Part shown: positions 3,735 through 56,544 of the stretch, piece after piece
How the letters are laid out: every line of letters starts with the position of its first letter
How positions within the stretch are numbered: the stretch's first letter is position 1
NCBI GenBank assembly: GCA_964475835.1
Contig: CAYYYL010000002.1
Location: 49,910-113,909, forward strand
Origin: an uncultured Verrucomicrobiota bacterium
GTDB lineage: Bacteria; Verrucomicrobiota; Verrucomicrobiia; JABWAM01
DNA length: 64,000 bases
Reading direction: 5' to 3'
Notes under the pieces: model-generated
Databases searched by the model: none
What the model was told of the DNA's origin: nothing
The model's input: the letters and a program-made list of their open reading frames with translations, nothing else
Made by a program: the position numbers and the translations under genes

Positions 3735-3735
3735 T

Positions 3736-18837: not shown

Positions 18838-18861
18838 CATTCCCAAAATGTTGGTCTGACC

Positions 18862-33000: not shown

Positions 33001-33075
33001 ATAGATCCGATTATGCCACGCGCCGAAATGGATGGCAAACAGGATATTCATTGTAAGAGTAAATAACTGGACAGT

Positions 33076-35718: not shown

Positions 35719-36564
35719 ATGGTCCGCTCCTCGATTTTCTATGAAATGCACATGCATACGCCTCTTTGCAGGCACGCCACCGGGGAGCCTGAGGAGTATG
35801 CAGAGGTGGCCTTTTCGCGAAATCTAAAGGGGATGGTGGTGACGTGCCACAATCCTTTGCCTGGGGGTTGGGGGGCTGCCAGTCGAATGAGGCTCGAGGA
35901 ATTTTCCATCTATCAGGAAATGGTGTTGCGCACCCGCAAAACATGGGAAGGACGGGTTGATGTCCGACTGGGCCTGGAATGTGATTACGCGCCGGAGCTC
36001 GAACCCTGGCTCCGAAAACAACTTGATGGTGTAAGCTTCCACCATGTGCTTGGGTCAGTCCATCCCCAGATTCCTGATTACATGGACGCGTACTTTCGGG
36101 GCGACTGGTTTGCGTATCAGAAGACCTATTTTGATCACCTCGCAAGATCTGCGGAGTGCGGGTTGTTTGATACGCTTGCGCATCCCGATTTGATCAAAAA
36201 TTTATCACCTGAGGAATGGCGCTTGGATCGCATTGCTCCATTCATTCTGGAGGCGCTGGATCGCATCGCCCCGACGGGGGTGGGAATGGAATTGAACACG
36301 TCGGGGCTGAACAAGGCGATTCGAGAGATGAATCCCTGTCCCTGGATGCTTCGTGAAATGCGGGCCCGTTCCATACCGGTTACGATTGGAGCGGATGCTC
36401 ATCATCCGGGGAGGGTGGGGAGCCATTTTGAGGAGGCTCTTTCCATGCTGGAACAGGCAGGTTACGAGAGAGTGGGAATCGTTCTGGATCGCCAGCGAAT
36501 CGAGTTTCCCCTGGAAAAGGTCCGGCGTAGCCTTCAACCGATCAGTGCGTCAACTGTTTCGTGA
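35719..36564 (+). CDS. PHP-domain phosphoesterase of the HisJ/HisK histidinol-phosphatase family
   Basis: The N-terminal [19 protein letters not shown] matches the HisK H-x-H-T..C.HA.G..EEY motif. It lies 8 bp downstream of the kinase. Confidence 0.65.
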
Positions 36565-37900
36565 GTTGGTTGATCGCCTGCTTCAGGCCGCTGTCAGTTT
36601 TGAGACGTTCGTCCACCAGCCTGCATGCGTGGATGACGGTGCCATGGTCCCGTCCGCCGAACACCTCGCCAATTTCGTTCAGTGAGGAACGCGTCATGAT
36701 GCGGCAGAGATACATCGCCACCTGGCGGGGGAACGCGATGTTTGCACTCCGACGCTTGCTAGTCATATCCGCGAGACGAATGTCAAAATATGCTGCAACG
36801 CGTTTCTGAATGGTTTCCGCAGTCAATGCCTGCTTGCTCTCCTCAATCAAAATATCCTGAAGCTCGTCCTCCACTTCAGCGACTGTCAGCGGGCGGGCTT
36901 TGAGTTTCGTGGAAAACCAGACCTTGGCCCAGGCACCCTCGAGACGACGCACATTCGTTTTGATGTGATGAGCGAGAAATTGAAGGATTTCGTCAGGAAT
37001 GGGGACCTGGCTGTGTTCCTGTTTCCTCCGAAGAATGGCGAGGCGGGTTTCCTCATCAGGAAGTTGAAGTTGAACCGTAAGACCCCACTCAAAGCGTGAC
37101 ACAAGGCGTTGTTCGAGGTTTGAAATTTCAGTTGCAGGCCGATCACTTGAAAGCACGATCTGTTTCTGGGCTTCGAAAAGAGTGTTGAAGGTGTGGAAGA
37201 ACTCCTCCTGCATCTGATCCCCACGACCTAAAAAGTGAATATCATCCACCAATAGAATATCGCAATTCCGGTATTTTTTCCGAAATGGAACAAACCGTTT
37301 GTTCTGAATTGCATCCACAAATTCATTTACGAAACGTTCCGTGGAAACATAAGCGATCTGACACGATTTATTCTGGCTTACCAGATGGTGTCCGATGGCA
37401 TGCATGAGGTGGGTTTTCCCCAGTCCCGTGGCTCCGTAGATGAAGAGGGGATTGTAAGCCCGGCCAGGAGACTGGGCCACAGCGGAACATCCGGCATGGG
37501 CATACTGATTGCTCGGACCCACGACAAAGTTGTTGAAGGTGAAGGCTGGGTTGAGAATGTTGCGCTCAACGGACGGCTTCATGCGGGCCGGAGCCGGGGT
37601 GGGCGTCCAACTTTCCGCAGGTGGTGTTTTGGCGCTAACAACCTCGGTATCCTCATTGCGGATGAAGCGAAAGGTCATTGCTTTTCCGGAAATGGCGCTC
37701 AGCGTGTCCCTTAGAAGATCGCCGTAATTGTCCTCCAACCAGTAGCGATAGAGATTGGAAGACGCCTGGAGGCAAATGCAGTCGTTTTCGATGTGAGAAG
37801 CTCGGATGGGGTCAAACCAGCGTTTAAAAACTTGCGGGGCAACAACTTCGTTGAGCCGTGTGGCGGTGCGTTTCCAAAGATCCTGCGGGGAAGATTCCAT
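36542..37900 (-). CDS. dnaA: Chromosomal replication initiator protein DnaA
   Basis: 452 aa. Walker [11 protein letters not shown], Walker [10 protein letters not shown], sensor motifs, and the domain IV DNA-binding helix-turn-helix ([10 protein letters not shown]). Confidence 0.95.
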
Positions 37901-38668
37901 GGTCGATTCGCTAGTTATTCACAACAGGATGAGATTTCCCGAGTTGGTTGATGGGGGTGAAACAAAAAGGGCAGAAGGGTGGTACAGGGATGGAGATGAT
38001 GTCGATTGAGGCAAAAAAGGGATGGTGTTGCTGGCAAAAAGGTCGATATTTCCCTTAACAAAATGAGACCATTCCGGAAATTAGGCTTCCGAAGGGAAGC
38101 ATTTCCCAAAGAATAAGCTGAAAAGGGGAAGGATGGGAGTGAGTACCAACGGAAGATGCAGACTTTGACATCCGGCTGGGTTGGGGAGTTTTCAACAAGT
38201 TATTCACAGGGTTGGTTTGAACTCACTTTTTCCGCTTCGCGGCCATTTTAGTTCCAACTTTAGTTCCAACTTTTTTCAGCACAAGATTTTTTTGATCTCG
38301 AAGAAAATTTATTTCGTAAACTTGCAGTATGATTTCTTGCGGGCTCAACGGGAATAGAGAAGGCGTAAAAAAAAACCAAGCAAAATTGATTCAATTTGGA
38401 GATTTTCTATGTTGACGAAAAAAAATTAAATTGTGGGAAAGGATGGGCTGTTTTTTTCTAGGGGATGAAGAAGTTTAAAAGATTTTATATTTATGATTTA
38501 ACCGGTTCCGTGTGGGAGTCTTGATTTTGGGTTCCCTTCGGCCGGAATTAAAGATGAACGGAAGGGCAAAACGAAAGTGGCAAGGCAGTCAAGAAATGAA
38601 CATTGTCTTGGCGGTTGGGGAGGGGGTATATTGAAACTGGATTTCATTTTTTGAAGTGGTGTTATTTT
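37901..38668. other. Candidate chromosomal replication origin (oriC) or dnaA regulatory region
   Basis: This is the longest non-coding stretch in the window (~770 bp) and lies immediately upstream of dnaA. It is AT-rich, especially at 38290-38500. Two identical 11-mers AGTTATTCACA at 37913-37923 and 38198-38208 each contain TTATTCACA, which matches the E. coli DnaA box (TTATCCACA) at 8 of 9 positions. There is also a 12-bp tandem repeat and several A and T tracts. Confidence 0.45.
38248..38271. repeat. Perfect 2 x 12-bp tandem repeat (TTAGTTCCAACT) inside the candidate origin
   Basis: Read directly from the sequence. Confidence 0.9.
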
Positions 38669-39235
38669 ATGCAACCCAAGAAAATTCTTGTGCTAACGAT
38701 TTGCTTCATTGTGATGGGTATTGCTTTGGGGTCTGTCGTCTACCGTCTTTTCCCTAAAAAAATTTCCAACCGCCACGTGAGTGAAGCCATGGGGAAAATA
38801 TTTGCGGTTGAGGTCTCGAAATATTTGGGTGATGGGAGTGTCTGCGTGGTGATTCTTGAGCGTCCTGGAAAGTCTCAAAATGATACGTTTCTGGAAGCGT
38901 TGAATGGGACTTCGATTCGTCTTGAGGGTGTTGAGAAAATTGTTCCCGATGAAATGGGATTATACGGACGTGGGCCGTTTTCAAAGGAAATGTTTCTTCA
39001 GTTTTTGAGCGCCCACCCCAATGTTTCAGCCATTGTTTCCTTAATCGGCCCTCCCAACGACCTTGAACAGATTTCGCCCCAACCCAATCGACCCAAGTTG
39101 ATGGTTTTCAGTAATCGCACGGCACAACTTGAAGACCTTATTCGTGCGAACTTGGTTCAGATGGCCATGGTGCCCAAAAACAACGGGGGAACTGAATACG
39201 AAGTCCTTACCGAAAGCTCCCTTCGGGACAAGTGA
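38669..39235 (+). CDS. Hypothetical membrane-anchored protein (N-terminal TM/signal anchor, 188 aa)
   Basis: MQPKKILVLTICFIVMGIALG signal-anchor. The ORF-track start at 38603 would place coding sequence inside the AT-rich origin-like region, so the ATG at 38669 is preferred. Confidence 0.4.
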   Translation: MQPKKILVLTICFIVMGIALGSVVYRLFPKKISNRHVSEAMGKIFAVEVSKYLGDGSVCVVILERPGKSQNDTFLEALNGTSIRLEGVEKIVPDEMGLYGRGPFSKEMFLQFLSAHPNVSAIVSLIGPPNDLEQISPQPNRPKLMVFSNRTAQLEDLIRANLVQMAMVPKNNGGTEYEVLTESSLRDK

Positions 39236-39259
39236 GGCGAGGAGGCTTTGCGGTTTTCC

Positions 39260-40186
39260 CTAGGGCATGTGGGGATTTTTGTTTGGCGGAGGCAGGTAGT
39301 CACTATTGGGCCACCCGCCAAACCAACCATCGTCAATTTTATCGATATCCTGGACTGGATTAAGGGATTGGACGTGGCCGTCACAGTAGACGTAGTTATC
39401 GACTCCTGGCCTTGCCACCACAGGGCGCCACTGGCCCCCTGGGCTTAGCTTTGTGGTATCGTCCCAAAGGGTGTCCACTCCGCCATGAAAACCGGCAGGG
39501 CCTGTCATTTCATAGCCCCAAGCATCAAATGGAAGGGTCCTTAAACTAAAAACATTCGGAAAGGTTCCCAAGGGGTGCCATGTCCCACCGAACGCATTAC
39601 ACGTAAAAGCAATCCGACGGCCGGGATCAGGAACCAGAGTGCCAGCTGGCTGGTGAACCTCGGGGTGGGCCATAGGATTCGGCCAGGTCGGGAAATCCGG
39701 ATAGTTTGGAAAAGGAAGAATTAGGGTGTTGTTATATGCATATCCCTGAAGGTCGTTTTTTACCCCCTTGTAGAGCTCGACGACAATGGGACAAACAAGA
39801 TTGTAAGGGATTCGATGTTCAAATCCGCCAGGAACAGACCAATTAGCAACCTGACATCCCAAATAGGGAGCCAATCTTGTGTTGATATCCTGGTATGAGA
39901 TGGGGGTAGGCCCGTGTGGCCATTGTTGAGGATCCGCCCAGTTGCTATCACGATCCAAAGGGTAGCAATCATGATTTGCCACCCGGTACATATTTAGGGC
40001 AGCCCCCCAATTTTTAAGATTGCTGACACAAGTTATCCGCTTCGATAGAGTTTTGATTCGGCTGAGCGCTGGAAACAGGAGTGAGACAAGGACGCTAATG
40101 ATGGTTAAAACAACCAGGAGTTCCATGAGCGTGAAGCCCCTTGAACCGAACTTTTCAGACTTTTTTGTCAACGAGATGGGTTGCAT
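39260..40186 (-). CDS. Prepilin-type N-terminal cleavage/methylation-domain protein (DUF1559-like)
   Basis: GFTLMELLVVLTIISVL leader and helix, with the C-terminal NYVYCDGHVQS motif. Confidence 0.75.
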   Translation of the reverse strand: MQPISLTKKSEKFGSRGFTLMELLVVLTIISVLVSLLFPALSRIKTLSKRITCVSNLKNWGAALNMYRVANHDCYPLDRDSNWADPQQWPHGPTPISYQDINTRLAPYLGCQVANWSVPGGFEHRIPYNLVCPIVVELYKGVKNDLQGYAYNNTLILPFPNYPDFPTWPNPMAHPEVHQPAGTLVPDPGRRIAFTCNAFGGTWHPLGTFPNVFSLRTLPFDAWGYEMTGPAGFHGGVDTLWDDTTKLSPGGQWRPVVARPGVDNYVYCDGHVQSLNPVQDIDKIDDGWFGGWPNSDYLPPPNKNPHMP

Positions 40187-40377
40187 GGTAATTGACGCCC
40201 TTCCGAAAGGTAGTCCAAGTTCTTCAAAAACGCCACAGAAACAATCGCACCTACAGCCAAGTCATAAGTGAGGCTTTATCAAGGTTTTGCGCCCCCCCGA
40301 GTTGCAACTTGGACGACTACAGGTTAGATCTAGTATGCTCCTTGTACATAAATGCTGTGGCGTGAACTTGTTTTAAA

Positions 40378-42390
40378 ATGTTTAACATGATTTTTGCCTC
40401 CCGTTTTCTTTGGATTTGTCTGGTGCGTTTGCCTGTTCTGCTGCTTGGCATGGTTGTTATTGGATTGACTGGTTGTGTTCAGACCCAGACGGGGGGGGAT
40501 TCGGTTCCTACCCAACCCAGGCCTTCGACCCAGCTCCACCCCGAATCTTCCAGGTTTGTTCAATTGCAGTTAAATAAAGGAGGATGGTGGTTTGTTCGGG
40601 GCGGGGACTCTTTTCTTTCGCGTGGGGTAAATGTGGTTGAACCTAGTGAGCCGTCTCCCCGTGATTCCGGGAATTGTTACAACGTACTCCCAAAATTTGA
40701 CGGATCGGAGGATGCCTGGGCCGAATCGACGGTGGATCGCTTGCGATCCTGGCATTTTAACACGGTTGGAGCGTGGTCAAACGAGGCCATCTATAAACAG
40801 GAGATATACCATACGCGTGTGGTTTGGTTTGGGGGCTATGGCGGAAGTAACGATCAACGGTTGATCGACGTTTTTTCAGAGGAATACCGGGAGCGGCTCG
40901 AAAAAACGGCTCTTGAACAAGTTCAGCCGTTTCGGAACGAGGAATGGTTGATCGGTTACTTTATAAATAATGAACTTCCCTGGTATGGAGATCGTGCATG
41001 GAAGACTTCCAGCACCACCTCCCTGGTGACTCGATATATGGAGCTTTCTGCGGGAGCCCCGGGAAAGCGGGCGGTGGTTCGATTCCTTCAGGATAGTTAC
41101 AAGGGAAATTGGGAGGATTTCAGGGCGGATTGGAGCACTAACGCCAAGGACTTTTCCTCCCTTCTATTTGAGCGGAATCTTCAGCCCCGAAACAGCCGGA
41201 GTTCGGTGGCTGTTTTCGGATGGGCGGGGGAGGTTGCTGAACGCTATTTCCTGCTTTGTGAAAAGGCAATCCGTGCACACGATCCACAGCATTTGATTTT
41301 AGGATCGCGGTTTTCGATGGAGGCACCGGCGGCCGTTCTCAAGGCCTGTGCGGGGCATTCGGATGTTATAAGTGTGAACCACTATCGCCAATCAGGGCAT
41401 ATCGATCAAGATCGCCTTCAGCGTCTCTACGCTTTGACCCAGCGCCCCATTCTGATCACCGAATTCTCGTGGAGAGCGACTGAAAACGGGTCTGACTTGA
41501 AAAATATCGAAGGGGCGAGTGTCACGGTTCCAACCCAGGAGGATCGGGCGGCAGCGTGCCGCGAGTATCTGGGGGAATTGGTGCGCGAACCCTATATTAT
41601 CGGCTATCATTGGTTTCAGTACCATGATCAACCTCCGGCTGGACGTTATTTTGATGGGGAGGATTCTAACTTTGGTCTCGTCGATACGCGCGATAGGCCT
41701 TATGAGGCTGTGGTTGATGCCTTAAAGGAAATCAATCGTGGAGCCGAGAGGCGGCACGGAGAGAGTCGGATCGCTCTTCCAATGGAAAACCTTGGGGCCA
41801 TCATTGACTATCGTCCGGTCCGGGTGCCCCCTCCCTGTGAGGATGGATCTTCACCGGCCTTTATTTCGTTGCGGTACCTGGATTATGCGTCTGAAGTCAT
41901 GCCCTATGGGGACTCCCATGGATCGGTGGTGAGCGTCAAACCTTTTGAAGGGAATGGTCGTTCCCTGAAATTTGAGTCAGGAAATGGTTGGGGTGCGGGT
42001 GTAATCATACGTCCCCCGTTGCGCTTCCGTTCGAAATCCAATGCAGCAGATTTCCGTGGGGCTCAAAGAGTGGTCGTAACCGCGAAGGCACCCCGAGGAG
42101 CCTTGTTTCATTTGGAGGTGATGGAATCCGGGGCGGATACTCGGGGACGCGATGTTTATGAAGGGGAGCGGGGGGCGGATGGGGAACTTTTCATGTCGAC
42201 GGATGTCGAGGGAGATGGCACATGGAAGGACTATATTTTTGAGTTTCAAGCCATGGAAATTCATGACCACTACGGAAACGACCACGGAAATCGCACGGTT
42301 GACACCCAGGCCCTCCAGGAGATTCACCTGGTTTTTCCAAAGGATCAGTCGGACACCACCCTGGATGTCCGCTCAATGAAGCTCGAATGA
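40378..42390 (+). CDS. Glycoside hydrolase lipoprotein, clan GH-A (beta/alpha)8-barrel-like, with a C-terminal beta-sandwich domain
   Basis: Lipobox GLTGC. Candidate acid/base motif FINNELPW and candidate nucleophile ILITEFSW, with spacing typical of GH5/GH2-like TIM-barrel hydrolases. The specific GH family is not assignable by eye. Confidence 0.55.
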   Translation: MFNMIFASRFLWICLVRLPVLLLGMVVIGLTGCVQTQTGGDSVPTQPRPSTQLHPESSRFVQLQLNKGGWWFVRGGDSFLSRGVNVVEPSEPSPRDSGNCYNVLPKFDGSEDAWAESTVDRLRSWHFNTVGAWSNEAIYKQEIYHTRVVWFGGYGGSNDQRLIDVFSEEYRERLEKTALEQVQPFRNEEWLIGYFINNELPWYGDRAWKTSSTTSLVTRYMELSAGAPGKRAVVRFLQDSYKGNWEDFRADWSTNAKDFSSLLFERNLQPRNSRSSVAVFGWAGEVAERYFLLCEKAIRAHDPQHLILGSRFSMEAPAAVLKACAGHSDVISVNHYRQSGHIDQDRLQRLYALTQRPILITEFSWRATENGSDLKNIEGASVTVPTQEDRAAACREYLGELVREPYIIGYHWFQYHDQPPAGRYFDGEDSNFGLVDTRDRPYEAVVDALKEINRGAERRHGESRIALPMENLGAIIDYRPVRVPPPCEDGSSPAFISLRYLDYASEVMPYGDSHGSVVSVKPFEGNGRSLKFESGNGWGAGVIIRPPLRFRSKSNAADFRGAQRVVVTAKAPRGALFHLEVMESGADTRGRDVYEGERGADGELFMSTDVEGDGTWKDYIFEFQAMEIHDHYGNDHGNRTVDTQALQEIHLVFPKDQSDTTLDVRSMKLE

Positions 42391-42449
42391 TGTTTGCCTG
42401 GGCATGAGTTTGCCTCTAAGGTCTGCCCTTTCAACTCTCTGGTGATGCC

Positions 42450-43580
42450 ATGAAAAAAATCCCTACGAAACTGGATCGTGAATCCAATCGTTTTTTGCAT
42501 TCGCAGTTGAAGTCGATTTTATTGACGCAAATTCGCGAGCAAAACTGGAAGCCGGGGGATCGACTTCCCTCTGAAGAACAGCTCAGCAAGAAATACAGAA
42601 TTAACCGGGCAACCATTCGACGGGCGTTGAAGGATTTGATTCAGGATGGGCTGATCTATCGGGTGCCGGCGACGGGGACCTTCGTTTCCGATCCCAAAAC
42701 GATGGATCCAGAGTTCGTTCGAGTGGGGAAGGGGGCTTCCAATGTTGCTTGGCTGATGAAAACTCAAAAAGGACTGGTGCTTGGGCCCTTTCATACGGAG
42801 ATGTTCGATACGGCAAATCTTGAGCTTCGAAAGCTCCGTTACCGTTTGGTGTTTTTTTCCGTGGATGACCCTGCAAACCAGGGCAAGGTCCTTCAACAGA
42901 TTAATCAGAAGGAATTTGCAGCCGTCGTCCTCGTGGGCGGGCTTCCCGAGAATTTTATTGAAGCTGTAGCCAAACTTGAGATCCCATCCATCTTGCTCGA
43001 CAATCATTTGCGGCAAACTCGCATGGACAGCGTTCTTCCAGACAATCAAGCCGGGGCTTACGATGCGGTTCGACTGCTTCTGGATCATGGGCACCGTCAA
43101 ATAGCCTGTATTCGAGCCCCTTTAAATGAGGCAGCCTCGCGGGAGCGTTTTCAGGGATACGTTCATGCCTTGATGGAGGCCGGGCTTTCGTACAATCCCG
43201 ATCTTGTCGCCGAGGGGAATTTTCAGGTGGATGGCGGAGAGCGGGCCATGGCGCAGATTCTTGATTGTAAAAAAGCCGATCGGCCAACAGCCGTCTTTTG
43301 TTTGAACGATGAGATGGCCATTGGGGCGATGAAGTGTATACGTCAGCGGAAGATGGAAATCCCCAGGGATATTTCGGTCATAGGATTCGATAATGTGGAC
43401 TGGGCCGCTCATTCCATCCCCCCTCTGACAACGATCGAGGTCCCCAAAAGTCAGTTGGTAAGGATGGCTATCAAGCTGCTCGTGCAACGAATGAAGGCCT
43501 CCTTGGATGTGCCATGCAAACTCCTTCTCCCCACTTCGATTGTCACCCGCCAGTCCGTTGCACCCTGTCTTACAAAATAA
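42450..43580 (+). CDS. Hybrid transcriptional regulator with a GntR-type winged-HTH N-terminus fused to a LacI/periplasmic-binding-protein-like sugar-sensor domain
   Basis: GntR HTH (LPSEEQLSKKYRINRATIRRALKDLIQDGLI), followed by LacI-type sensor blocks (VVLVGG, CLNDEMAIGAMK, DISVIGFDN). Confidence 0.8.
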   Translation: MKKIPTKLDRESNRFLHSQLKSILLTQIREQNWKPGDRLPSEEQLSKKYRINRATIRRALKDLIQDGLIYRVPATGTFVSDPKTMDPEFVRVGKGASNVAWLMKTQKGLVLGPFHTEMFDTANLELRKLRYRLVFFSVDDPANQGKVLQQINQKEFAAVVLVGGLPENFIEAVAKLEIPSILLDNHLRQTRMDSVLPDNQAGAYDAVRLLLDHGHRQIACIRAPLNEAASRERFQGYVHALMEAGLSYNPDLVAEGNFQVDGGERAMAQILDCKKADRPTAVFCLNDEMAIGAMKCIRQRKMEIPRDISVIGFDNVDWAAHSIPPLTTIEVPKSQLVRMAIKLLVQRMKASLDVPCKLLLPTSIVTRQSVAPCLTK

Positions 43581-43588
43581 TGATTTTC

Positions 43589-45472
43589 ATGAAAACATCC
43601 CTGCGATTGACCGTTGTGACGATTGGTGCCTTGCTGACAGCCATCCAGGCTTTTGCCTGGGAGGATTCGACCGGGGAAAAGTCGCGTTTGACCCTTGCGG
43701 TACCCGGAAGTGCCGAAATGGTGGATTATGAAAAATTTGGTGAATTTCGAAATGTAGGTACGGAAAAGTTTTGTTACGTGATCAAAGATCGAAAGGGTTT
43801 GGCGGAGCAGGTGGGAGAAGGGGTGGATCCATGTCAGGCCCTGACAAAGGACCCCGTTTACCTTGAATTGAAAAAAAAGAAGGCTTTTCCGGGTCCTCAT
43901 TGGGACTATACGGATCACGCGAATCTTCCGCTGCGTTTCTATGCCTGGGCCGGAGCAACCGAGGATGGAGGCGTTCGACAATATTACACCGCGAAGGCTC
44001 TTGAAGATAATGGTCTGTTGATCCAGGCTCTCAGAGGATATTATGCGGTGGTTCTGCTCTATCCAAGGGCGGTGGGCTGGTCTTTTTGGAAATCGCCCCT
44101 TTATATGTCCCGAATGGCGTTGGATCGCATCGAATTTCTTCTACGGAAGCATCCCGAACTTCACCTGGCTCTCAAGGACGCTTATGTGAAAGTGGAGAAT
44201 GGTTTCGATGATGATGTTGCCAATGATCGTATCCTGGTGAATCCCGGACATTGGGTGAAGGAGTCTCCAACTCCCGTTGTGCCGGATCTGAAATCTTTGA
44301 AAATAGTGAAGAAAATCGGGGGGCCCAACGTCGAATTGGTACAATACGAAAATATGCACTGGCAGCTCTTAAAGGATGGCAAGCCTTTCATGATGCGGGG
44401 CATGGACTATGTGCCGACGCCTGTGGGCATGGGCAATCATACCGAGGGTTATGATGTGAATGGGTCGTGGCAGCTTGCTGATTCGAATCATAATGGGAAA
44501 ATTGATGCCATCGAGGAGTCCTGGATCGATACCAATGGGAATGAGGTTCAGGATCCTGATGAACCATGGACGACAGACATGCAGATCCTTCAGGACATGG
44601 GGGTGAACACGATTCGAATCTACAACCATGTGTTCAATAAAGATCTATTAAAACGGTGGCATGAGAAAAACGGGACCATGTTCCTGATTGGCGATTTCGC
44701 TGGAGCCTATGCAGCCGGCTCGGGTGCCACATGGGAGGCGGGAACGGATTACAGCAACCCGGAACAGGTGGAACGACTCATGGCGCTGATCAAGAAGATG
44801 GTTCTGGATGTGAAGGATGAGCCCTATGTGCTGATGTGGGTTTTGGGAAATGAGAATGTCTATGGAGTGGCGAATAGCGCAAAAAGGGATCCCGTCACCT
44901 ATTGGAAATTCATCAATCGAGCAGCGGAAATGATTCACGAGCTGGATCCCCATCATCCCGTGGCTGTCAGCAGTGGGGATCTCTATCTTTTTGACTCCTT
45001 TGTCGCAAATGCTCCCGCCGTGGATGTCTATGGCTGCAATATCTATCGGGGGAATGGCGGCATGGGGAAAAGTTTTTGGAGAAGCATTTTTGAGTTTAGT
45101 GGAAAACCGGTTTTTATCTCCGAATTCGGCTGTTCCGCCTACGCCAACGGCAGGACAAAGGAGGAGGTGGAGAATTTTCAAAAGGACTACCATCAGGGGA
45201 ACTGGGAGGATATTGAGTTCAATAAGGGCGGAGGTCTTGGGTATGGGAATGCGTTGGGAGGCATGGCTTTCGAATTTTGTGATGAATGGTGGAAAGCGGA
45301 ACACCTTCCCATGGAGGCTCATGATGTTCGGTCCGAACATCCAGCTCCTTTTTGTGACGGAAATAATTACGAGGAATGGTATGGACTCTTTTCCGTGGGA
45401 ACTGGGAAAAATAGTCCCTTCATGCGGCAGCCTCGGGCAGCTGTCGATTACTACAAAAACACCTGGAAATGA
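43589..45472 (+). CDS. Secreted glycoside hydrolase, clan GH-A TIM-barrel-like
   Basis: Signal peptide MKTSLRLTVVTIGALLTAIQAFA. Candidate acid/base WVLGNENVYG and candidate nucleophile FISEFGCSAY. The start codon overlaps the regulator's stop. Confidence 0.6.
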   Translation: MKTSLRLTVVTIGALLTAIQAFAWEDSTGEKSRLTLAVPGSAEMVDYEKFGEFRNVGTEKFCYVIKDRKGLAEQVGEGVDPCQALTKDPVYLELKKKKAFPGPHWDYTDHANLPLRFYAWAGATEDGGVRQYYTAKALEDNGLLIQALRGYYAVVLLYPRAVGWSFWKSPLYMSRMALDRIEFLLRKHPELHLALKDAYVKVENGFDDDVANDRILVNPGHWVKESPTPVVPDLKSLKIVKKIGGPNVELVQYENMHWQLLKDGKPFMMRGMDYVPTPVGMGNHTEGYDVNGSWQLADSNHNGKIDAIEESWIDTNGNEVQDPDEPWTTDMQILQDMGVNTIRIYNHVFNKDLLKRWHEKNGTMFLIGDFAGAYAAGSGATWEAGTDYSNPEQVERLMALIKKMVLDVKDEPYVLMWVLGNENVYGVANSAKRDPVTYWKFINRAAEMIHELDPHHPVAVSSGDLYLFDSFVANAPAVDVYGCNIYRGNGGMGKSFWRSIFEFSGKPVFISEFGCSAYANGRTKEEVENFQKDYHQGNWEDIEFNKGGGLGYGNALGGMAFEFCDEWWKAEHLPMEAHDVRSEHPAPFCDGNNYEEWYGLFSVGTGKNSPFMRQPRAAVDYYKNTWK

Positions 45473-45589
45473 CGCTTTACGCTTGATTTCTTGACAAAAA
45501 ACCAATAACAACATAAGACTGGCCGGATCCTGGTCCTATCAAAACCAGATTTCGGTTCAAACATTGCATCCACCAAGTAACATCCAACC

Positions 45590-46192
45590 ATGAAGAAACA
45601 ACTCAAACAGATCGCGCTCGTTCTGGTAACGAGCTTCGCAGCCACGCATCTTTTCGCACAGGAAGCGCCACTTCCTGTACAGAAACTTCCTTTTTCCGTT
45701 TATTCGGACATGGGTGATCATTTTATTCCCTCCGGATGGATGGGGGATTATGGTGACCTCAAGCTTGCGGATAGCGAAAAGACAAATCCGGCTCAAGGAA
45801 CCAAATGCATTAAAATCACCTATACGGGCAAAGCCACCGGCGGCCAGAAGTGGGCTGGAATTTACTGGCAGGATCCCGCAAATAACTGGGGAACCACGAA
45901 AAATGCCGGATATAACCTCACTGGCGCCAAATTGGTAAAGTTTTTTGCCCGTGGGGAAAAGGGCGGGGAAGTTGTTGAATTTAAATCGGGTGGAATCTCT
46001 TCCGGGGACTATCCTGATAGTTACAAGGCCGATGCGCCCGCGACAACGCTGACGCAGGAGTGGAAGGAATATGAAATCGATCTCGCGGGTCAGGATCTCT
46101 CCCACGTGATCGGTGGATTTGTGTTTGCTCTGAATAAGGACAAAAATCCTGATGGAGCCGTCTTTTTCCTCGATAACATTCGTTTCGAGTAA
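45590..46192 (+). CDS. Secreted ~200-aa beta-sandwich (carbohydrate-binding-module-like) protein, paralogue A
   Basis: Signal peptide MKKQLKQIALVLVTSFAATHLFA. About 40% identical to the next gene, sharing the blocks LPFSVYSD...SGWMGD, IYWQDPANNWGT and VIGGF...FLDNIRF. Confidence 0.55.
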   Translation: MKKQLKQIALVLVTSFAATHLFAQEAPLPVQKLPFSVYSDMGDHFIPSGWMGDYGDLKLADSEKTNPAQGTKCIKITYTGKATGGQKWAGIYWQDPANNWGTTKNAGYNLTGAKLVKFFARGEKGGEVVEFKSGGISSGDYPDSYKADAPATTLTQEWKEYEIDLAGQDLSHVIGGFVFALNKDKNPDGAVFFLDNIRFE

Positions 46193-46208
46193 TTGACCGA
46201 AGTTTAAA

Positions 46209-46242
46209 CGCACCGCCGGCTTCGCTGGCGGTGCGTTTTTTT
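46209..46242 (+). terminator. Rho-independent terminator
   Basis: Perfect 9-bp stem cgcaccgcc / ggcggtgcg with the 9-nt loop ggcttcgct, followed by seven Ts. Confidence 0.8.
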
Positions 46243-46245
46243 GTT

Positions 46246-46848
46246 ATGGGGAGCATTCGTAGGACGGTCTGTTGTCTCTATACGGGCCTGATGTTGATGC
46301 AGGTTGATGCTGTCGACGTTCGTCGGTATCCCCAGAAAATGCCGTTTTCTGTTTTCAGTGATCAGGTGGACAATTTTTCCCCTTCGGGATGGATGGGGGA
46401 TGTTGAGGATCTGCATTTAAATCTCCGTTATACGAGTGATCCTGGTGAGGGAAAGGTGTGCCTGCAGATCATCTACAGGCCAAAAAATGGGGTGGGAGCC
46501 GGGTGGGTGGGGGTTTATTGGCAGGCTCCAGCCAACAATTGGGGAACCTCAAGGGAGGGCGGGTACGATCTGACTTGGGCCAGGAAAATCCGATTTAAGG
46601 CCAAAGGGTCGCGGGGTGAGGAGCTGATCCGATTTAATGCGGGTGGAATTACGGGGCCCTATCCTGATACTTTTAAAACCAGCATGCAGACCGTTACGTT
46701 GACGACAGCTTGGAAGGACTATGAAATTTCGCTGACGAGTCAAAATCTTGGCCGGGTTATTGGAGGTTTCTGTTTCACCATCCCCAAAGACGGAAATCCC
46801 GAGGGGTGCGTTTTTTATCTGGATGATATCCGATATTCCACGTTTTGA
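46246..46848 (+). CDS. Beta-sandwich (CBM-like) protein, paralogue B
   Basis: Shares the paralogous blocks MPFSVFSD...SGWMGD, VYWQAPANNWGT and VIGGFCF...YLDDIRY. The ORF-track GTG at 46231 lies inside the terminator, so the ATG at 46246 is preferred. The N-terminus is a weak, non-canonical signal peptide. Confidence 0.5.
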   Translation: MGSIRRTVCCLYTGLMLMQVDAVDVRRYPQKMPFSVFSDQVDNFSPSGWMGDVEDLHLNLRYTSDPGEGKVCLQIIYRPKNGVGAGWVGVYWQAPANNWGTSREGGYDLTWARKIRFKAKGSRGEELIRFNAGGITGPYPDTFKTSMQTVTLTTAWKDYEISLTSQNLGRVIGGFCFTIPKDGNPEGCVFYLDDIRYSTF

Positions 46849-46911: not shown

Positions 46912-47592
46912 ATGACTTTTTTTCATCAGCTTCAGCTCCTTTTTGAGCGAACCTATTCTGGCATTGGGGTGGATCTGGAAGCGTGTCTTATTGGAAGGCA
47001 TCGTTGTCTTGAACTTTCACGGATGGCCCCGGATCGGGCAGCCGAGCTTAGCATGGATGGACGAACTTTTCTTCGGATCGTCGATGGGAGGCTCCATGTG
47101 GCCATTTGGTATGATCCATCCATTATCCGGATGCTTGAAGATCATCATCCGTTTCGTGAGTTGAGTAGTGCGAACATTCGAGCGCTCATCGTGTTTATCG
47201 AGGAGTTGAACCATGCGGTTCACGCGGGTTTGCTTTTTCTAGAAAGCCGGTTTGACCAGAAGGACGGGGAGCTTGCGGCAAACTTGGAACTGCAGTCCAG
47301 GATTGATACCTACTTTACACTGGAGGTGATTTGTCGAGCCCTTCATCGAGAGCGGGCTTTAAGTTGGAAGGAGCGAGACTGGATTGAAACATCTCTGTTC
47401 GATCAGGAATCTTTTGAGTACACAGACCCGCGTTTAAAAGCGCGGTACGCCAACTCAAACTATCTTGCCCGAAAATGCGTGCGACATTTGAGTCGACTTT
47501 CCAAGACGGACAGAATTCAGGCTATGCGTGAGTTTCGGGTTAAAACCTTTCGGGAAAAGAGGGAGTGGATCGAAGCCTGTTCGAAGTTTTGA
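46912..47592 (+). CDS. Hypothetical cytoplasmic protein of unknown function
   Basis: 226-aa ORF with no signal peptide or transmembrane segment and no motif I can assign. Confidence 0.4.
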   Translation: MTFFHQLQLLFERTYSGIGVDLEACLIGRHRCLELSRMAPDRAAELSMDGRTFLRIVDGRLHVAIWYDPSIIRMLEDHHPFRELSSANIRALIVFIEELNHAVHAGLLFLESRFDQKDGELAANLELQSRIDTYFTLEVICRALHRERALSWKERDWIETSLFDQESFEYTDPRLKARYANSNYLARKCVRHLSRLSKTDRIQAMREFRVKTFREKREWIEACSKF

Positions 47593-47676: not shown

Positions 47677-50600
47677 CTATGCCGGCTTGGAGATCTTTTT
47701 TATGCGCCACTGTTGAATCGACAAGAAAATGACTGGGGTTACGAGAAGGATATGAATGAGGCTAGAGATCATGCCCCCGATTACGGGTGCGGCAATGGGA
47801 CGCATGATTTCAATGCCGGTTCGTTCGTTGGAGAAGATGGGAAGCATGAGTGGGACAAGGCTTGCGAGGACCGTGGAAACAGTCATCACCTTGGGGCGCA
47901 TGCGCAGAGCCGCCCCTTCCAAAATTGCTTCCATGAGTTGGGGACGTGTTAAATGACCTCCCTGGGCCTTGGAATGGCGTTTAACAGCCTCCTCAAGGTA
48001 GATGACCATGACCACCCCTGTTTGGACTGCGGTTCCAAACAGTGCGATGTAGCCCACCCACACCGCCACTGAAAAATCATAGTTCAACATCCATTGAAGG
48101 AAGACTCCCCCTGTCAGAGCGAAAGGAACGGCCAGAAGAACGTGGGCGGCTTCAAGGAAGGATCGATAGACCATGTACAGAAGCACAAAGATGATCATGA
48201 TGACGACCGGGCCCACGATAAAAAGGGTCCGATGAACCCGGAGGAGATTCTCGTACTCGCCTCCCCATGAAATGGTGTACCCGGGAGGAAGGGTGATCTG
48301 ATTGATTTTCTGTTTTGCCTCTTCAACAAAACCGCCAAGGTCCCTGCCTCGAACATTGCATTGCACAAAAACACGCAGTTGTCCGTTTTCACTCGAAATC
48401 ATGGATGGACCCGTGGAGGAGTGAATTTCCGCCACTTTTCCAAGGGGAATGGATGCCCCATTCATGGAGGAGACCAGAATGTTTGCAATGGCCTCCGGAC
48501 TGTCCCGTAATTCCCGGGCATAACGAAGTCGCACGGGAAACCTCTGTCGACCTTCAATGGTGGTAGTCAGGTTTCGACCTCCAATGGCGGTCTCAATGAC
48601 ATCCAATACCTCGTCCATTTTAACTCCATAACGGGCGAGATCGTTGCGCTTGAGCTCAATTTCCAGGTAGGGGCTCCCCACCCCGCGTTCTGCGTAAATG
48701 TCAGCGGCACCGGGAATTGTTCGCAGGAGGCCTTCGACCTCGATGGCTTTTGCCTCGAGTGTTTTGAGGTCATCGCCAAATAATTTAACGGCGATTTGGG
48801 TGCGCACACCGGTGTTCAGCATCAGCACCCGATTCTGAATCGGTTGCAAAAAAGCGGGAGTGAATCCCGGTATGTGACTGACGGCGTCGGTCATCTCCGC
48901 TATCAGGCTGTTCTTGGTCACGCCGGCACGCCAGAGATGCTCTGGTTTCAATGTGATGGTGGTTTCGATCATGGAGACGGGCGCTGGGTCGGTCGCTGTT
49001 TCCGCCCGCCCCAATTTTCCCACGACCTCCTCCACTTCAGGAAACTGATGAAGGATGCGGTCCTGTTCAGCCATCACCTTTTGAACCTCGGTAATGGAGG
49101 CGCTTGGAATGGTGGTGGGCATGAAAAGCAAGGCTCGTTCGTTAAGTGGGGGCATGAATTCCACCCCAAAACGGGTTGCCAGAAATGCCGCGCTTAAAAA
49201 AAGTGCGCCGGCGATTCCGAGAGTTGCGGCCCTGTGGTTCAATGCAAGGCGCAGAATGGGTAGATAAATGCGAAGCAGGATTCGCATGAGGGGATTTTCG
49301 TTTTCGTCATGAATCTTTCCCCTTACGAGAAGGGTGCAGAGCACCGGTACCAGGGTGACGGCGATGGCGGTGGAGGCGATCATCGCAAAAGTCTTGGTGA
49401 AGGCCAGGGGGTGAAACAGCTTTCCCTCCTGCCCTGTCAGGGCAAATACTGGAATGAATGCGAGGATGATGATGGCCATCGAATAGAAAATGGGACGGAC
49501 AACCAATTTCGTGGCATCAAGGGTGATTTCTACAATATGAGTTCGTAGAAAACTATTTTTCTCAGAATCGCTTGCATGAGGGATTTCCCTCCGGATGCGA
49601 ATGTGGGCTTCCCTCATCACACATTCCGTGACAACGATCCCTGCGTCGACCAGAACGCCGATGGCGATGGCAATTCCGGAGAGGCTCATGATGTTGGATG
49701 TAAGGCCAAATTGTTTCATCATCACAAACGCCATGAGGATGGAGAGCGGGAGCGGAATGGTCACAATGGCGATGGATCGGAAATGGAATAGGAAGATGAT
49801 GTGGGCAAGCGTCACCAGGATGATGGCCTCCAGAAGGGCAAAACGAAGGGTCTGAACCGCTCGGGCGATCAATTCACTCCGATCATAAAAGGGGCGAATC
49901 TCCACTCCCTCCGGAAGCCCCCGCTGAATTTCACTGATTTTGGCTTTCACGCGATCAATCAGCTCACTTGTGCTCACCCCGTAGCGGGCAACGACGATGC
50001 CGCCGACGATTTCCTCGCCATTGCGATCCAGGGCGCCGCGTCGGAATTCAGGGCCCAGTTGGACGCTTGCCACATCCCGTACCAGAACCGGTTGGCCATC
50101 CCGATAGTCCACAAGGACCCGTTCGATGTCTTCCGTGGAGTGAAACAAGCCAAGTCCGCGAACCAGAAATTCCATCCGGTTTTGCTCGATCACATTTCCC
50201 CCGACGTTGTTATTTGATCCCATGACGGCTTCCGCAACCTGTTTCAAGGTTACGTTGTACGAGCGCAATTTATTGGGATCGACGTCAATCTGGTATTGGC
50301 GGACAAACCCACCAACCGAAGCGACCTCCGCCACGCCGGGGACCGAATTGAGTTGGTAGCGTACAAACCAGTCTTGCAGGCCCCGCAACTCACCAAGGTC
50401 ATGCCCCTTCCCCATGGCTGATGCTCTGGAAGTGTCGAGGTAGTACTCATAGATCCAACCCAAGCCCGTGGCGTCGGGGCCAAGAGTGGGTGTGACCCCT
50501 CTCGGGAGGGACCCTCCAAGCGTGCCCAGTTTTTCGAGGACGCGTGCCCGTGCGAAATAGGTGTCCACGCTGTCTTCAAACACAAGGGTCACCATGGAAA

Positions 50601-50868
50601 AACCGAAGTTGGAATTCGCCCGTATGCTTTTTACTCCGGCCAGGCCCCGAAGATTGACGCTGAGGGGGTAAGTGACCTGGTCCTCGATCTCCTGGGCTGC
50701 CCGGCCTGGCCACTCGGCGAAAACAATGACCTGGTTTTCACTCAAATCCGGAATCGCATCAATGGGGGTATGATAAGCCGCCCAGATCCCCCACCCTGTA
50801 AGCAGAAGATAGGCGATCAGGACCAGGAAGCGATTTCGCAAAGACCACTCAATGAGTTTCTGGATCAT
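47677..50868 (-). CDS. cusA: CusA/CzcA-family heavy-metal efflux RND permease
   Basis: Twelve-TM RND architecture. The N-terminus [23 protein letters not shown] and the conserved [16 protein letters not shown] are typical of CusA/CzcA. The ATG at 50868 is preferred; it leaves a 4-bp gap after cusB. Confidence 0.9.
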
Positions 50869-50872
50869 GGAG

Positions 50873-52318: not shown

Positions 52319-52323
52319 AAGGC

Positions 52324-54763: not shown

Positions 54764-54856
54764 CCAAACGGCACCATTCCGAAAACCTGCATTGAAATCA
54801 ACGAGATCCGTTTCGAAGTTGGCATTTTGAAAATTCACGAGCATCCTCTTCGAAGG

Positions 54857-56140: not shown

Positions 56141-56535
56141 AAGACTCCCTTATCCTTTTTCTGCCAGCATTGGTCTTGATCCTTACGGCTTGTGATGTGA
56201 AGGGGCCATCGACAGCCCCTGCGGCATCTACAAGTTCCTCGACACCATCCGGGAATCGCCCGACGGTTTATACCAATTCCGAGTCTGTGGTGGATGCCCC
56301 GGCGAATTACGTGGGTGCGGTGCTTTCGAAAAAACTGGAAACCGAATCCCGCATGGAGCTGCTCAATGTACGACGGGCGATTGATTCCTTTCGGGAACAG
56401 GAGGAGCGTCCTCCAGTCTCTCTAAATGAACTTGTGGAGAAGGGTTATTTGAAGGTGGTCCCCCAACCTCCTCGGGGTCAGAGTTTTCACTACAATTCCT
56501 CGGATGGATCTGTCCGCTTGGTTCCCGCTTCCTGA
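56137..56535 (+). CDS. Small lipoprotein of unknown function
   Basis: Lipobox LILTACD. 132 aa. Overlaps the upstream gene by 4 bp. Confidence 0.45.
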   Translation: MKDSLILFLPALVLILTACDVKGPSTAPAASTSSSTPSGNRPTVYTNSESVVDAPANYVGAVLSKKLETESRMELLNVRRAIDSFREQEERPPVSLNELVEKGYLKVVPQPPRGQSFHYNSSDGSVRLVPAS

Positions 56536-56544
56536 CACGATTTT

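Follow-up and report, generated by a model that had tools for sequence, protein, structure and literature searches.

A candidate beta-1,3-glucan utilisation locus of an uncultured Verrucomicrobiota bacterium, and a widespread family of small CBM-like proteins linked to its long hydrolase

Background

Among the closest known systems are the beta(1,3)-glucan loci of Bacteroides (Dejean et al. 2020, PMC7157763), which encode the enzyme BuGH158 together with surface glycan-binding proteins. The GH158 fold consists of a (beta/alpha)8 barrel and a C-terminal eight-stranded Ig-like domain (PMC13195107). GH157, GH158, and subfamilies 2 and 3 of GH50 are all beta-1,3-glucanase families. Within GH50, Fsa16295Glu of 'Fervidibacter sacchari' is a beta-1,3-endoglucanase of subfamily 3, and PaBglu50A belongs to GH50_2; in Aga50D, Glu534 is the acid/base and Glu695 the nucleophile (PMC11079163).

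Here we compare with these systems a locus of an uncultured Verrucomicrobiota bacterium, analysed within a stretch of 64,000 nucleotides (the window). The main point, absent from the preliminary description of this DNA, is the linkage of a family of small proteins without a Pfam model to a long hydrolase.

Results

Gene layout

The five ORFs described previously are all present at the coordinates given then. The features of the locus are as follows (positions in the window).

39260-40186, minus strand: prepilin-type (DUF1559/H-X9-DG-like) pseudopilin gene, transcribed away from the hydrolase operon; may be co-regulated with it
40324-40339, no strand assigned: candidate half-degenerate operator TTAGATCTAGTATGCT in the divergent intergenic region, from a positional weight matrix (PWM)
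40378-42390, plus strand: hydrolase 1, ORF of 670 aa, GH50-like lipoprotein; (beta/alpha)8 domain at approximately residues 58-459, C-terminal domain of ~210 aa
42450-43580, plus strand: regulator, ORF of 376 aa; GntR winged-helix HTH (residues 18-79), LacI/GalR-type periplasmic-binding-protein sensor (residues 113-370)
43514-45472, plus strand: hydrolase 2 as ORF, 652 aa
43580-45472, plus strand: hydrolase 2, secreted, "long"; signal peptide, ~250-aa alpha/beta domain with TPR-like helices, (beta/alpha)8 barrel
45491-45519, plus strand: promoter-like site for small protein A (TTGACA, 17 nt, TAAGAC), read from the sequence
45590-46192, plus strand: small protein A, 200 aa, signal peptide ending AQE
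46206-46245, plus strand: intrinsic terminator, 15-bp stem and U-tract (hairpin 46206-46238)
46231-46848, plus strand: small protein B as ORF, 205 aa, opening at GTG 46231
46246-46848, plus strand: small protein B, likelier extent; secreted CBM-like protein, divergent paralogue
46912-47592, plus strand: conserved 226-aa ORF without signal peptide; membership in the locus uncertain

The public calls for the hydrolases are shorter than the ORFs: P0391 (667 aa) corresponds to a start of hydrolase 1 at 40387, and P0123 (630 aa) to a start of hydrolase 2 at 43580, where it overlaps the regulator stop codon in TAATG. The GTG of B falls within the terminator stem, and the in-frame ATG at 46246 is the likelier start. 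The 226-aa ORF has a syntenic orthologue in a relative, L006 (E = 7e-79); nothing above cut-off was found for it in Pfam or NCBIfam, and scanning of loci L090-L094 detected no counterpart. The gene order of the locus was found again in relatives, and the pair of hydrolase and small protein recurs across phyla. Thus the grouping is not due to chance.

Small proteins A and B

A and B are indeed paralogues, although their identity is 45% over 196 residues (E = 3e-67), not ~40% as first described. B retains all 30 residues invariant in the family, with R and N at the nearly invariant positions E130 and K132. A B-type orthologue with the identical C-terminal STF is present in L006. The signal peptide of B had been noted as weak; its hydrophobic core is weaker than that of A (Kyte-Doolittle maximum 2.01 versus 2.54). 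Predicted structures of both proteins have, with high confidence, a CBM-like beta-sandwich/jelly-roll fold, and no enzyme family matches them. This agrees with the initial suggestion of non-catalytic, CBM-like proteins.

The family comprises ~3,400 clusters at 50% identity. It reaches its highest abundance in Omnitrophota, where one of its bearers is the predator Ca. Velamenicoccus archaeovorus. Neither Pfam nor NCBIfam has a model that matches it. A search of PDB with the family profile produced no solved relative, nothing scoring below E = 0.02, with CBM30 at E = 0.5. Judged by these Pfam, NCBIfam, and PDB profile searches, the family belongs to no existing CBM family, although a recent one lacking both a Pfam model and a structure might include it. 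Fusions to GH17 catalytic domains are seen in three proteins (P0249, P0258, P0254), and in P0326 the domain occurs with a GH2_C-type barrel and a T9SS sorting domain. It is thus found, as CBMs are, as a discrete module within carbohydrate-active enzymes; A and B themselves are free-standing. A lipobox-like motif is present in 21 of 115 family members, and in several aligned members it is followed by a long low-complexity linker, as in surface glycan-binding proteins. A and B belong to this large, widespread family of sugar-binding type.

The link of the family to the long hydrolase is seen across Omnitrophota, Elusimicrobiota, and further lineages. Of 64 loci where this could be tested, 41 have the gene of the long hydrolase immediately upstream of the small-protein gene, and 44 of 65 have one for a short GH158-like hydrolase immediately downstream. 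The cassette of Ca. Velamenicoccus archaeovorus is accompanied by ABC permeases, a GH116 beta-glucosidase, a ROK protein, and a LacI regulator; that of locus L004, by a sugar-binding protein and two permeases. The cluster in the window encodes neither a transporter nor a cytoplasmic glucosidase. A nearby solute-binding protein (54719-56140) has 20% identity to that of the cassette and is not its orthologue. The locus had been called PUL-like; in the Bacteroidota sense this does not hold, as no SusC/SusD or TonB-dependent receptor family was found among the window ORFs scanned.

Hydrolases

Both large proteins are of the clan GH-A type, as proposed initially, and the catalytic glutamates required for this are aligned, present, and invariant in both.

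Hydrolase 1 is GH50-like by sequence. The best PDB match by phmmer is Aga50D (4bq2, E = 3.9e-40, 344 residues at positions 111-454), followed by other GH50 structures (E = 1e-37 to 4e-11), including 6xj9, 5z6p, and BpGH50 5t3b; this similarity links the catalytic domain to GH50. E199 (NNE) aligns with Glu534 of Aga50D, the residue changed to Q in 4bq4, and E362 (ITEF) with Glu695, the Glu of IGEF. Both are invariant among 75 homologues, giving the glutamate pair of clan GH-A. The lipobox LTGC is present, consistent with the earlier assignment as a lipoprotein, and lipobox-like motifs occur in 61 of 109 homologues. The C-terminal domain is probably CBM-like: its profile matches that of the small proteins with probability 58% and E = 1e-4 (hhalign).

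Hydrolase 2 is a distant GH158/GH157-like enzyme. The match with GH158 catalytic domains (E = 4e-13) is distant and covers only ~130 residues. E447 (GNE) and E537 (SEFG) align with the catalytic Glu of GH158 (GH158 numbering: PMC13195107) and are invariant among 26 homologues. The structural model has a ~250-aa domain ahead of the barrel. No Ig-like domain follows the barrel in this model; the remaining ~50 residues form one short strand and one helix. As the relation to GH158 is distant, the Ig-like domain is missing, and the N-terminal domain is unexplained, the specificity could differ. GH157 and GH158 are the top structural matches, closer than GH72.

Regulator and candidate operator

The regulator has PF00392 (E = 3.8e-16), PF13377 (E = 5.3e-39), and PF00532 (E = 6.2e-25). 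In PDB it matches the sensors of RbsR, PurR, and CcpA, and the AraR C-terminal domain 3tb6 (E = 8.5e-15). Over its full length it shares 38% identity with the UBP3-cassette regulator of L002. The hybrid GntR-LacI architecture reported previously is therefore confirmed; however, it is not novel, being the known AraR type.

Comparison of relatives yielded the candidate operator (A/G)TACTAGTA(T/C). Strong TACTAGTA palindromes were observed at promoters in five independent relatives. The motifs ATACTAGTAT or TACTAGTA are confined to loci with the GntR-type regulator and are always intergenic; 759 kb of control loci contain no match. The PWM was built from seven sites of relatives, which score 16-21. 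No site of such strength occurs anywhere in the window, the best score being 8.5. Upstream of 40378, one of the two places where an operator search had been suggested, lies the degenerate site 40324-40339 (score 7.8, rank 4 of ~64,000 positions). It includes CTAGTA at 40330, the only copy in the 64-kb window, and in L006 the half-site CTAGTATG has been retained ahead of the orthologous gene. As the site is weak, we regard it as a candidate operator of the GntR-type regulator. At the other place, upstream of A, the palindrome has decayed.

Expression of A and B

The strong terminator between the paralogues, noted before, has a 15-bp stem with 10 G-C pairs, a 3-nt loop, and a U7 tract (-29.9 kcal/mol, z = -5.1 relative to shuffles, none of 200 folding as well). 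In L006 an analogous hairpin followed by a U8 tract is found after the first small-protein gene (-25.9 kcal/mol, z = -6.1). The block GATTTCTTGACA is kept at the equal position upstream of that gene. The promoter-like site of A scores below the threshold of the consensus scan and should thus be considered a candidate. With this TTGACA-type site and a strong terminator of its own, A is probably made in excess. The start of B is 8 nt past the stem, so B must rely on read-through and is probably made only in this way. Differential expression, as suggested earlier, is therefore plausible on sequence grounds.

Divergent prepilin gene

The gene upstream on the opposite strand had been assigned to DUF1559 prepilins. 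The prepilin N-methylation motif is present (PF07963, E = 6.7e-7; TIGR02532, E = 6.5e-7). However, PF07596 was not found at E <= 0.1, and the match to the H-X9-DG model TIGR04294 (E = 0.03) is below the cut-off. Homologues (E = 1e-13 to 1e-20) adjoin the cassette in L090 (seven paralogues, with faint or weak PF07596 matches) and L093 (two). The syntenic relative L006 has no counterpart. The gene was initially treated as a mere neighbour, and it does adjoin the operon; but in L090 the prepilin paralogues carry the candidate operator of the hydrolase and small-protein genes. Copies of it lie there ahead of three DUF1559 transcription units and also of both regulator genes, the long hydrolase, and one small-protein gene. 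In the window and in L093 the DUF1559-like genes are divergent from the operon and adjoin it.

These two arrangements raise the possibility that in PVC bacteria DUF1559-type pseudopilins, hydrolases, and free CBM-like proteins form one sugar-controlled regulon, a pilus-assisted apparatus for beta-glucan capture or export, with the small proteins a new phylum-spanning CBM family whose free form would be the primary glucan receptor. We consider this extension rather unlikely. If true, it would give the greatly expanded DUF1559 family its first concrete function.

Discussion

We believe that the locus is a sugar-responsive glycan-utilisation cluster, the likeliest substrates being beta-1,3-glucans of laminarin, curdlan, or callose type, possibly mixed-linkage ones; the substrate, left open in the preliminary description, may be narrowed accordingly. 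The polymer would be cut by the membrane-anchored GH50-like lipoprotein and the secreted GH158/GH157-like retaining hydrolase. The non-catalytic jelly-rolls A and B, once exported by Sec, may bind glucan or oligosaccharides outside the cytoplasm, holding glucan at the cell and offering it to the enzymes in the manner of free-standing CBMs or surface glycan-binding proteins. The AraR-type regulator, encoded in the same apparent operon, would sit on the TACTAGTA-centred palindrome over the promoter -10 regions until a breakdown sugar binds it and the operator is released. A would then be supplied in excess from its own promoter, and B by terminator read-through.

Several observations count against this reading. 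Homologues of hydrolase 1 in other genomes mostly stand alone, and the GH50 enzymes characterised to date are mostly agarases. The cluster has no transporter or cytoplasmic glucosidase gene, hydrolase 2 is distant from GH158, and the window has no strong operator. It may be that this locus, though of the kind proposed, acts on another polysaccharide: an agarose/porphyran-type galactan, for example, or a mannan, or a glucan with beta-1,4 or beta-1,6 linkages. The likeness to beta-1,3-glucanases would then reflect clan GH-A ancestry alone. This seems improbable, as three independent lines lead to beta-1,3 linkages: the GH50_2/GH50_3 likeness, the GH157/GH158 structural matches, and the GH17 fusions. 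The GH116 enzyme of the Omnitrophota version points to glucosides, and many of the cassette loci belong to MAGs from groundwater and other non-marine settings, an unlikely place for agar. A further point against the main reading is that the small proteins are conserved across phyla (~50% identity) to a degree unusually high among CBMs that scavenge nutrients. One could suppose that the cassette serves to remodel or turn over beta-glucan that the cell itself has in its envelope or outside it (as matrix, capsule, or sheath), with the long hydrolase a transglycosylase like the fungal GH72 Gas/Gel enzymes and the small proteins structural glucan-binding parts of a matrix or adhesin. However, the regulators have sugar-sensing LacI-type domains, typical of catabolic operons; in Omnitrophota the ABC sugar importer, GH116, and ROK genes are contiguous with the cassette; no glucan synthase was seen adjoining it in the loci inspected; and GH157/GH158 rank above GH72. 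Self-remodelling is thus quite doubtful.

The abundance of the family in Omnitrophota, with a known predator among them, might suggest attack factors that degrade walls of prey or host cells. In a 2026 preprint (bioRxiv 10.64898/2026.06.07.730766), the GH2-annotated genes that flank giant proteins of predatory Omnitrophota are interpreted as machinery directed at cell walls. In L004 proteins of 776 and 1430 aa are encoded upstream of the cassette. But beta-1,3-glucan is not known as a wall polymer of bacteria or archaea, sugar-sensing repressors control the cassette, which is also linked to sugar import and a beta-glucosidase, and the window comes from a PVC bacterium whose gene content is ordinary, no giant protein being encoded nearby. 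We therefore find this highly improbable, and utilisation of beta-1,3-glucan is retained as the preferred reading.

Comparison with known systems

The PDB profile and Pfam searches detected no sequence relation between the small proteins and the type-B modules of CBM4, CBM11, CBM30, and CBM8 or the laminarin-binding module X584 (8qx6). Unlike these, the domain usually stands alone in a secreted protein or lipoprotein, or forms tandem copies of itself. Typical CBMs are far less conserved.

The regulator has the same chimeric architecture as AraR of Bacillus subtilis, with a GntR-family N-terminus and a LacI/GalR-type effector domain. As in AraR, it would control a glycan or sugar operon through a palindromic operator overlapping promoters. 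However, the sensor match is at the family level only, weaker than those to RbsR, PurR, and CcpA, and the candidate operator presumably differs from the AraR box.

Hydrolase 1 was set beside Fsa16295Glu and PaBglu50A by their published descriptions. Like them, it lacks the CBM-like domain that precedes the barrel in agarases, so that its GH50 barrel begins close to the N-terminus, and it comes from a non-marine, non-agarolytic source; the catalytic glutamates are at nearly equal positions, 192/354 there (PMC11079163) and 199/362 here. Unlike them, it is a lipoprotein with an extra ~210-aa C-terminal domain and belongs to a PVC-wide group.

In contrast to the Bacteroides BuGH158 loci, the window locus has no SusC/SusD pair or TonB-dependent transporter, its regulator is of AraR type rather than a hybrid two-component system, and its putative binding proteins, each a single jelly-roll of 20 kDa, have no sequence relation to the Bacteroides surface glycan-binding proteins (PMC7157763). 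Hydrolase 2 is only distantly GH158-like, with its additional N-terminal domain and no Ig-like domain. What the two would share is a GH158-type endo-glucanase beside non-catalytic glycan-binding proteins and a sugar-responsive regulator, and the overall logic of binding, cutting, and importing the glucan (PMC7157763).

Gene organisation of the locus

The locus at 40378-46848 is the form found in the PVC group of a widely conserved cassette, which combines a long GH158-like hydrolase with free CBM-like proteins and another hydrolase. All ORFs claimed for it in the preliminary description were found on the plus strand, and a prepilin-type gene indeed lies upstream on the opposite strand.

Genes of the locus and of its upstream flank
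36542-37900, minus strand, dnaA
39260-40186, minus strand, prepilin-type gene (ORF)
40378-42390, plus strand, GH50-like first hydrolase (ORF, 670 aa)
42450-43580, plus strand, regulator (ORF, 376 aa)
43514-45472, plus strand, long second hydrolase (652 aa as open frame)
45590-46192, plus strand, small protein A (ORF, 200 aa)
46231-46848, plus strand, small protein B (205 aa as open frame)

In public records the second hydrolase is called at 630 aa (P0123), which matches a start at 43580. The regulator stop overlaps this start in the sequence TAATG (43578-43582), which suggests translational coupling of the two genes. The same genes overlap by 4 nt in a similar style at 6048-6051 of L002, a homologous locus, and judging from this layout the repressor and the long hydrolase appear to be coupled in two distant lineages.

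Small proteins A and B are paralogous, with 45% identity (89/196 residues, E = 3e-67), slightly above the ~40% reported initially. The strong terminator placed between them was confirmed: positions 46206-46238 form a 15-bp stem in which 10 pairs are G-C, with U7 behind it (-29.9 kcal/mol, z = -5.1); 0 of 200 shuffles fold equally well. A generic scan for sigma-70 promoters and terminators gave no excess over shuffles except for this one strong terminator. Since the GTG codon at 46231 falls within the terminator stem, the in-frame ATG at 46246 is the likelier start of B.

The dnaA gene, with 35719-36564 on the plus strand next to it, lies ~2.5 kb upstream of the locus. The cumulative GC skew climbs smoothly through the whole window with no turning point, and thus dnaA may not mark a replication origin. 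No tRNA genes were found in the window. Other genes of the window include an ABC-2 transporter operon (15618-20667, plus strand: ATPase, permease, ABC_transp_aux/DUF7088 protein, DUF4340 protein) and a fused oxidoreductase of 1306 aa with TPP_enzyme_C, POR and DUF6537 domains (29398-33318, minus strand).

Conservation of the cassette

Gene neighbourhoods were counted in 80 loci from species-representative genomes; the window's own locus is not among them, the best match being 60%. Most of these loci belong to Omnitrophota (including Ca. Velamenicoccus archaeovorus), Elusimicrobiota and Endomicrobia, with one MAG each from Caldiserica, Chloroflexota and UBP3. The long hydrolase gene is directly 5' of the small protein gene(s) in 41 of the 64 testable loci, and a short (~430 aa) GH158-like hydrolase gene is directly 3' in 44 of 65. 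Any GH158-like gene occurs within 10 kb in 61/80 loci, and a LacI- or GntR-type regulator in 23/80. The V. archaeovorus cassette is contiguous with genes for two ABC permeases, a TPR protein, a GH116 beta-glucosidase, a ROK protein and a LacI regulator, and that of another locus, L004, is accompanied by a sugar-binding protein and two permeases. This context is a catabolic signature. In public annotation of Omnitrophota, Elusimicrobiota and further phyla that are mostly uncultured, the cassette genes are labelled 'GH2', 'beta-glucuronidase' or 'hypothetical', and in the literature searched they appear only as passing 'GH2' flanks.

The window cluster contains neither the short hydrolase nor any transporter. 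The solute-binding protein at 54719-56140 was considered as the missing importer and rejected, having 20% identity to the cassette solute-binding protein. It is of the sugar type (SBP_bac_1/8) and is followed by an MFS transporter (54719-57888, plus strand), with no adjoining ABC permease genes.

In a close relative (L006/L007, JGI metagenome 3300020939) the gene order is dnaA, GH50-like gene, regulator, long hydrolase, four small-protein genes, a 225-aa ORF and an RND pump. Its small-protein paralogues are separated by hairpins, of which the first carries a U8 tract. Synteny with L006 includes the dnaA-PHP-kinase neighbourhood and the heavy-metal-type RND efflux pair directly downstream of the window locus (47677-52546, minus strand), namely an AcrB/CusA-like pump of 1098 aa and a CusB/HlyD-like adaptor with two HMBD metal-binding motifs. 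A cytoplasmic-looking ORF of 226 aa with no family (46912-47592, plus strand) has a syntenic counterpart in L006 (E = 7e-79); none was detected in the scan of L090-L094. The prepilin gene and a membrane-anchored ORF of 210 aa (38603-39235, TTG start, no family) are missing from L006, where dnaA is followed by ~0.9 kb of mostly non-coding sequence with a single called gene of 45 aa and then by the GH50-like gene. At 38603-40186 the two genomes thus seem to differ by an insertion or a deletion.

Glycoside hydrolases

The first hydrolase matches Aga50D (E = 3.9e-40, residues 111-454) and three other GH50 structures. E199 of its NNE motif aligns with the position occupied by Gln in 4bq4, an inactive mutant of Aga50D, and E362 of the ITEF motif with the GH50 nucleophile position. 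The catalytic glutamates predicted at the outset thus align with the Aga50D pair, Glu534 and Glu695 (PMC11079163), and both are invariant across 75 homologues. The non-agarases of GH50_2 (PaBglu50A) and GH50_3 (Fsa16295Glu) are beta-1,3-glucanases (PMC11079163). Fsa16295Glu resembles the first hydrolase in layout, having Glu192/Glu354 and no N-terminal CBM-like domain (PMC11079163).

The first hydrolase carries the lipobox LTGC, and lipobox-like motifs occur in 61/109 homologues. Homologues of the same length come from MAGs of Phycisphaerae, Spartobacteria, Kiritimatiellae, Lentisphaerota and Verrucomicrobia, and from these closest named homologues the window can be assigned to the PVC superphylum. 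Its C-terminal domain of ~210 aa has no family match. The profile of this domain aligns in register with that of the small proteins (hhalign probability 58%, E = 1e-4); comparison of single sequences gave a probability of 0.8% and no link, and kinship of the two is only suggested by the profile-profile alignment. The GH50-like gene was rejected as a member of the conserved cassette: it is present only in the window and in L006/L007, and elsewhere such genes stand alone among housekeeping genes. It is a lineage-specific addition.

The long hydrolase is distant from known families (GH158(Pro), E = 4.4e-13; BuGH158, E = 7.6e-6), with weak Pfam matches to GH72 and GH2_C. Here, too, the expected catalytic glutamates were found: E447 and E537 fall on the positions of the published Glu143 and Glu229, and neither varies in the family alignment. 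The solved GH158 enzymes have a C-terminal Ig-like domain, whereas the long hydrolase has none and carries at its N-terminus a conserved alpha/beta domain of ~250 aa with TPR-like helices. Because of these two differences we do not file it as a GH158 member.

Small CBM-like proteins

Proteins A and B have no sequence match in Pfam, NCBIfam or PDB, and no tie at the sequence level to any solved CBM was found. Their family is very large, with >1,000 homologues in a word-indexed search and 3,368 cluster representatives (50% identity) in an exhaustive profile search, 1,015 of them below E = 1e-30. Members from different phyla are ~50% identical and share motifs such as PSGWMGD, WAGIYWQxPANNWG, FWARGEKGGE and FYLDDIRYE. 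B retains all 30 invariant residues, the nearly invariant E130 and K132 being replaced by R and N. L006 contains a B-type orthologue, hence the A/B split is older than that speciation.

Tandem arrays of the domain exist as well, reaching eight copies in one protein (P0243, 1745 aa), and it is also part of multidomain enzymes. Of ten proteins sampled, three have a catalytic domain of GH17, a family active on beta-1,3-glucan, and one has a GH2_C-type barrel. Thus the domain, free-standing in the window, behaves elsewhere as a true CBM. A lipobox-like motif is present in 21/115 family members, and several aligned members add a long linker behind it, as in surface glycan-binding proteins.

Copy number varies, from two in the window and four in L006 to 6-7 in L090. 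An ORF with this domain exceeds 1 kb in 45 of the 80 species-representative loci, consistent with two fused copies. The tandem copies and long ORFs were noted in P0243, P0244-P0251 and loci L008-L087.

Regulator and candidate operator

The regulator was described as a GntR-LacI hybrid. The fusion is real, with a GntR winged-helix domain (residues 18-79) and a LacI/GalR-type sugar-binding domain (113-370); the architecture itself is not new, since the AraR-type chimera is already known.

The candidate operator is a 10-bp palindrome ATACTAGTAT with core TACTAGTA. The regulator would bind DNA such as GGTATACTAGTATAGT, and the candidate site in the window is TTAGATCTAGTATGCT. In 1.42 Mb of collected loci ATACTAGTAT occurs only with a GntR-HTH regulator (L002/L003/L012, L006/L007, L090), and the core alone gives one additional match, L064. 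A metagenome scan for GntR-type regulators yielded mostly generic LacI-family loci, used as a negative control, and three new informative contigs, L092-L094. The palindrome or its core recurs in L092 and L094, and there were 0 matches to ATACTAGTAT in 759 kb of unrelated LacI-family loci. All candidate sites in GntR-type loci are intergenic, and several overlap the -10 box of a TTGACA-type promoter.

L090 (JGI 3300009873) comes from a PVC relative, with 59% identity between its long hydrolase and that of the window. It encodes two regulators, the long hydrolase, a short hydrolase, six or seven small-protein paralogues and seven prepilin paralogues of the DUF1559-like type. Sites with scores of 12.5-17.5 stand before three prepilin transcription units, before the long hydrolase and the second regulator, and before one small-protein gene; the first regulator has a weaker one (8.5). 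The prepilin paralogues, tandem or divergent, occupy positions 1-6700 and adjoin the cassette on its upstream side; TACTAGTA-type sites are found among them at 82, 1942 and 4705. These genes and sites are the basis for a lead, namely that prepilin genes may belong to the regulon. In L093, where the regulator is 68% identical, two prepilin genes are divergent from it.

The window has no strong candidate site, and a perfect palindrome is absent. With up to two mismatches ATACTAGTAT has 4 matches in the window against 4.3 expected, none of them in the locus. Of the two regions proposed for an operator, that upstream of 40378 contains a weak site, whereas upstream of A (45590) the palindrome, perfect in L006, is decayed. 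The weak site, TTAGATCTAGTATGCT at 40324-40339 (score 7.8, rank 4 of ~64,000), is the best in the locus and falls within the 191 bp that separate the divergent prepilin and GH50-like genes. Its CTAGTA is the sole copy in the CTAG-poor 64-kb window, and a half-site is kept at the same place in L006. It is probably a weakened operator, and it likewise hints that the prepilin genes may belong to the regulon. The counts of CTAGTA, TACTAG and ACTAGT in the 64 kb are 1, 1 and 0, ~15.6 each being expected at uniform composition; given this avoidance, a CTAG-centred operator would stand out sharply in this genome.

Proposed function

We have high confidence in a glycan locus with CBM-like binders and moderate confidence in beta-1,3-glucan as its substrate. 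The cluster would be sugar-controlled and serve beta-1,3-glucan use. Two enzymes would depolymerise the glucan, one anchored and GH50-like, the other secreted, retaining and GH158/GH157-like. Free jelly-roll proteins would bind polymer or oligosaccharide outside the cytoplasm, and a breakdown product would free the AraR-type repressor. A would have its own promoter and strong termination, and B would depend on terminator read-through. Substrate, binding, localisation and regulation are all things that we infer here, and we consider the scheme as a whole somewhat better than an even bet.

One possibility is that the cluster remodels an endogenous glucan. This would be consistent with the GH72/Gas similarity, with the very high conservation of the small proteins and with the lack of a transporter in the window cluster. 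However, the importer, beta-glucosidase and sugar-sensor context of the cassette argues against remodelling, and equally against an attack on prey walls, which might be envisaged in Omnitrophota. Less probably than beta-1,3-glucan, the cluster may serve another polysaccharide.

If the small proteins of the proposed glucan-use cluster do bind beta-glucan, they would constitute a new CBM family of ~3,400 sequence clusters, a marker of glucan use in dark-matter phyla and a compact, highly conserved binding scaffold. With the predicted operator and the possible tie to DUF1559 pseudopilins, the regulation becomes open to direct test, as does a PVC gene family that has long lacked an explanation.

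Comparison with known systems

A CAZyme gene cluster with non-catalytic binders is a well-known kind of system. New here is, first, the CBM-like family, which is very large and conserved and has neither a Pfam or NCBIfam model nor a relative of solved structure; second, its pairing with the distinctive long GH158-like hydrolase, which looks obligate and spans several poorly known phyla; third, a predicted operator of the GntR-type regulator; and fourth, the possibility that DUF1559 pseudopilins belong to the same regulon. Laminarin and other beta-1,3-glucans rank among the most abundant glycans on Earth. What is known of the bacterial machinery for their use is mainly the Bacteroidota system of the Sus type, whereas the window cassette is built differently.
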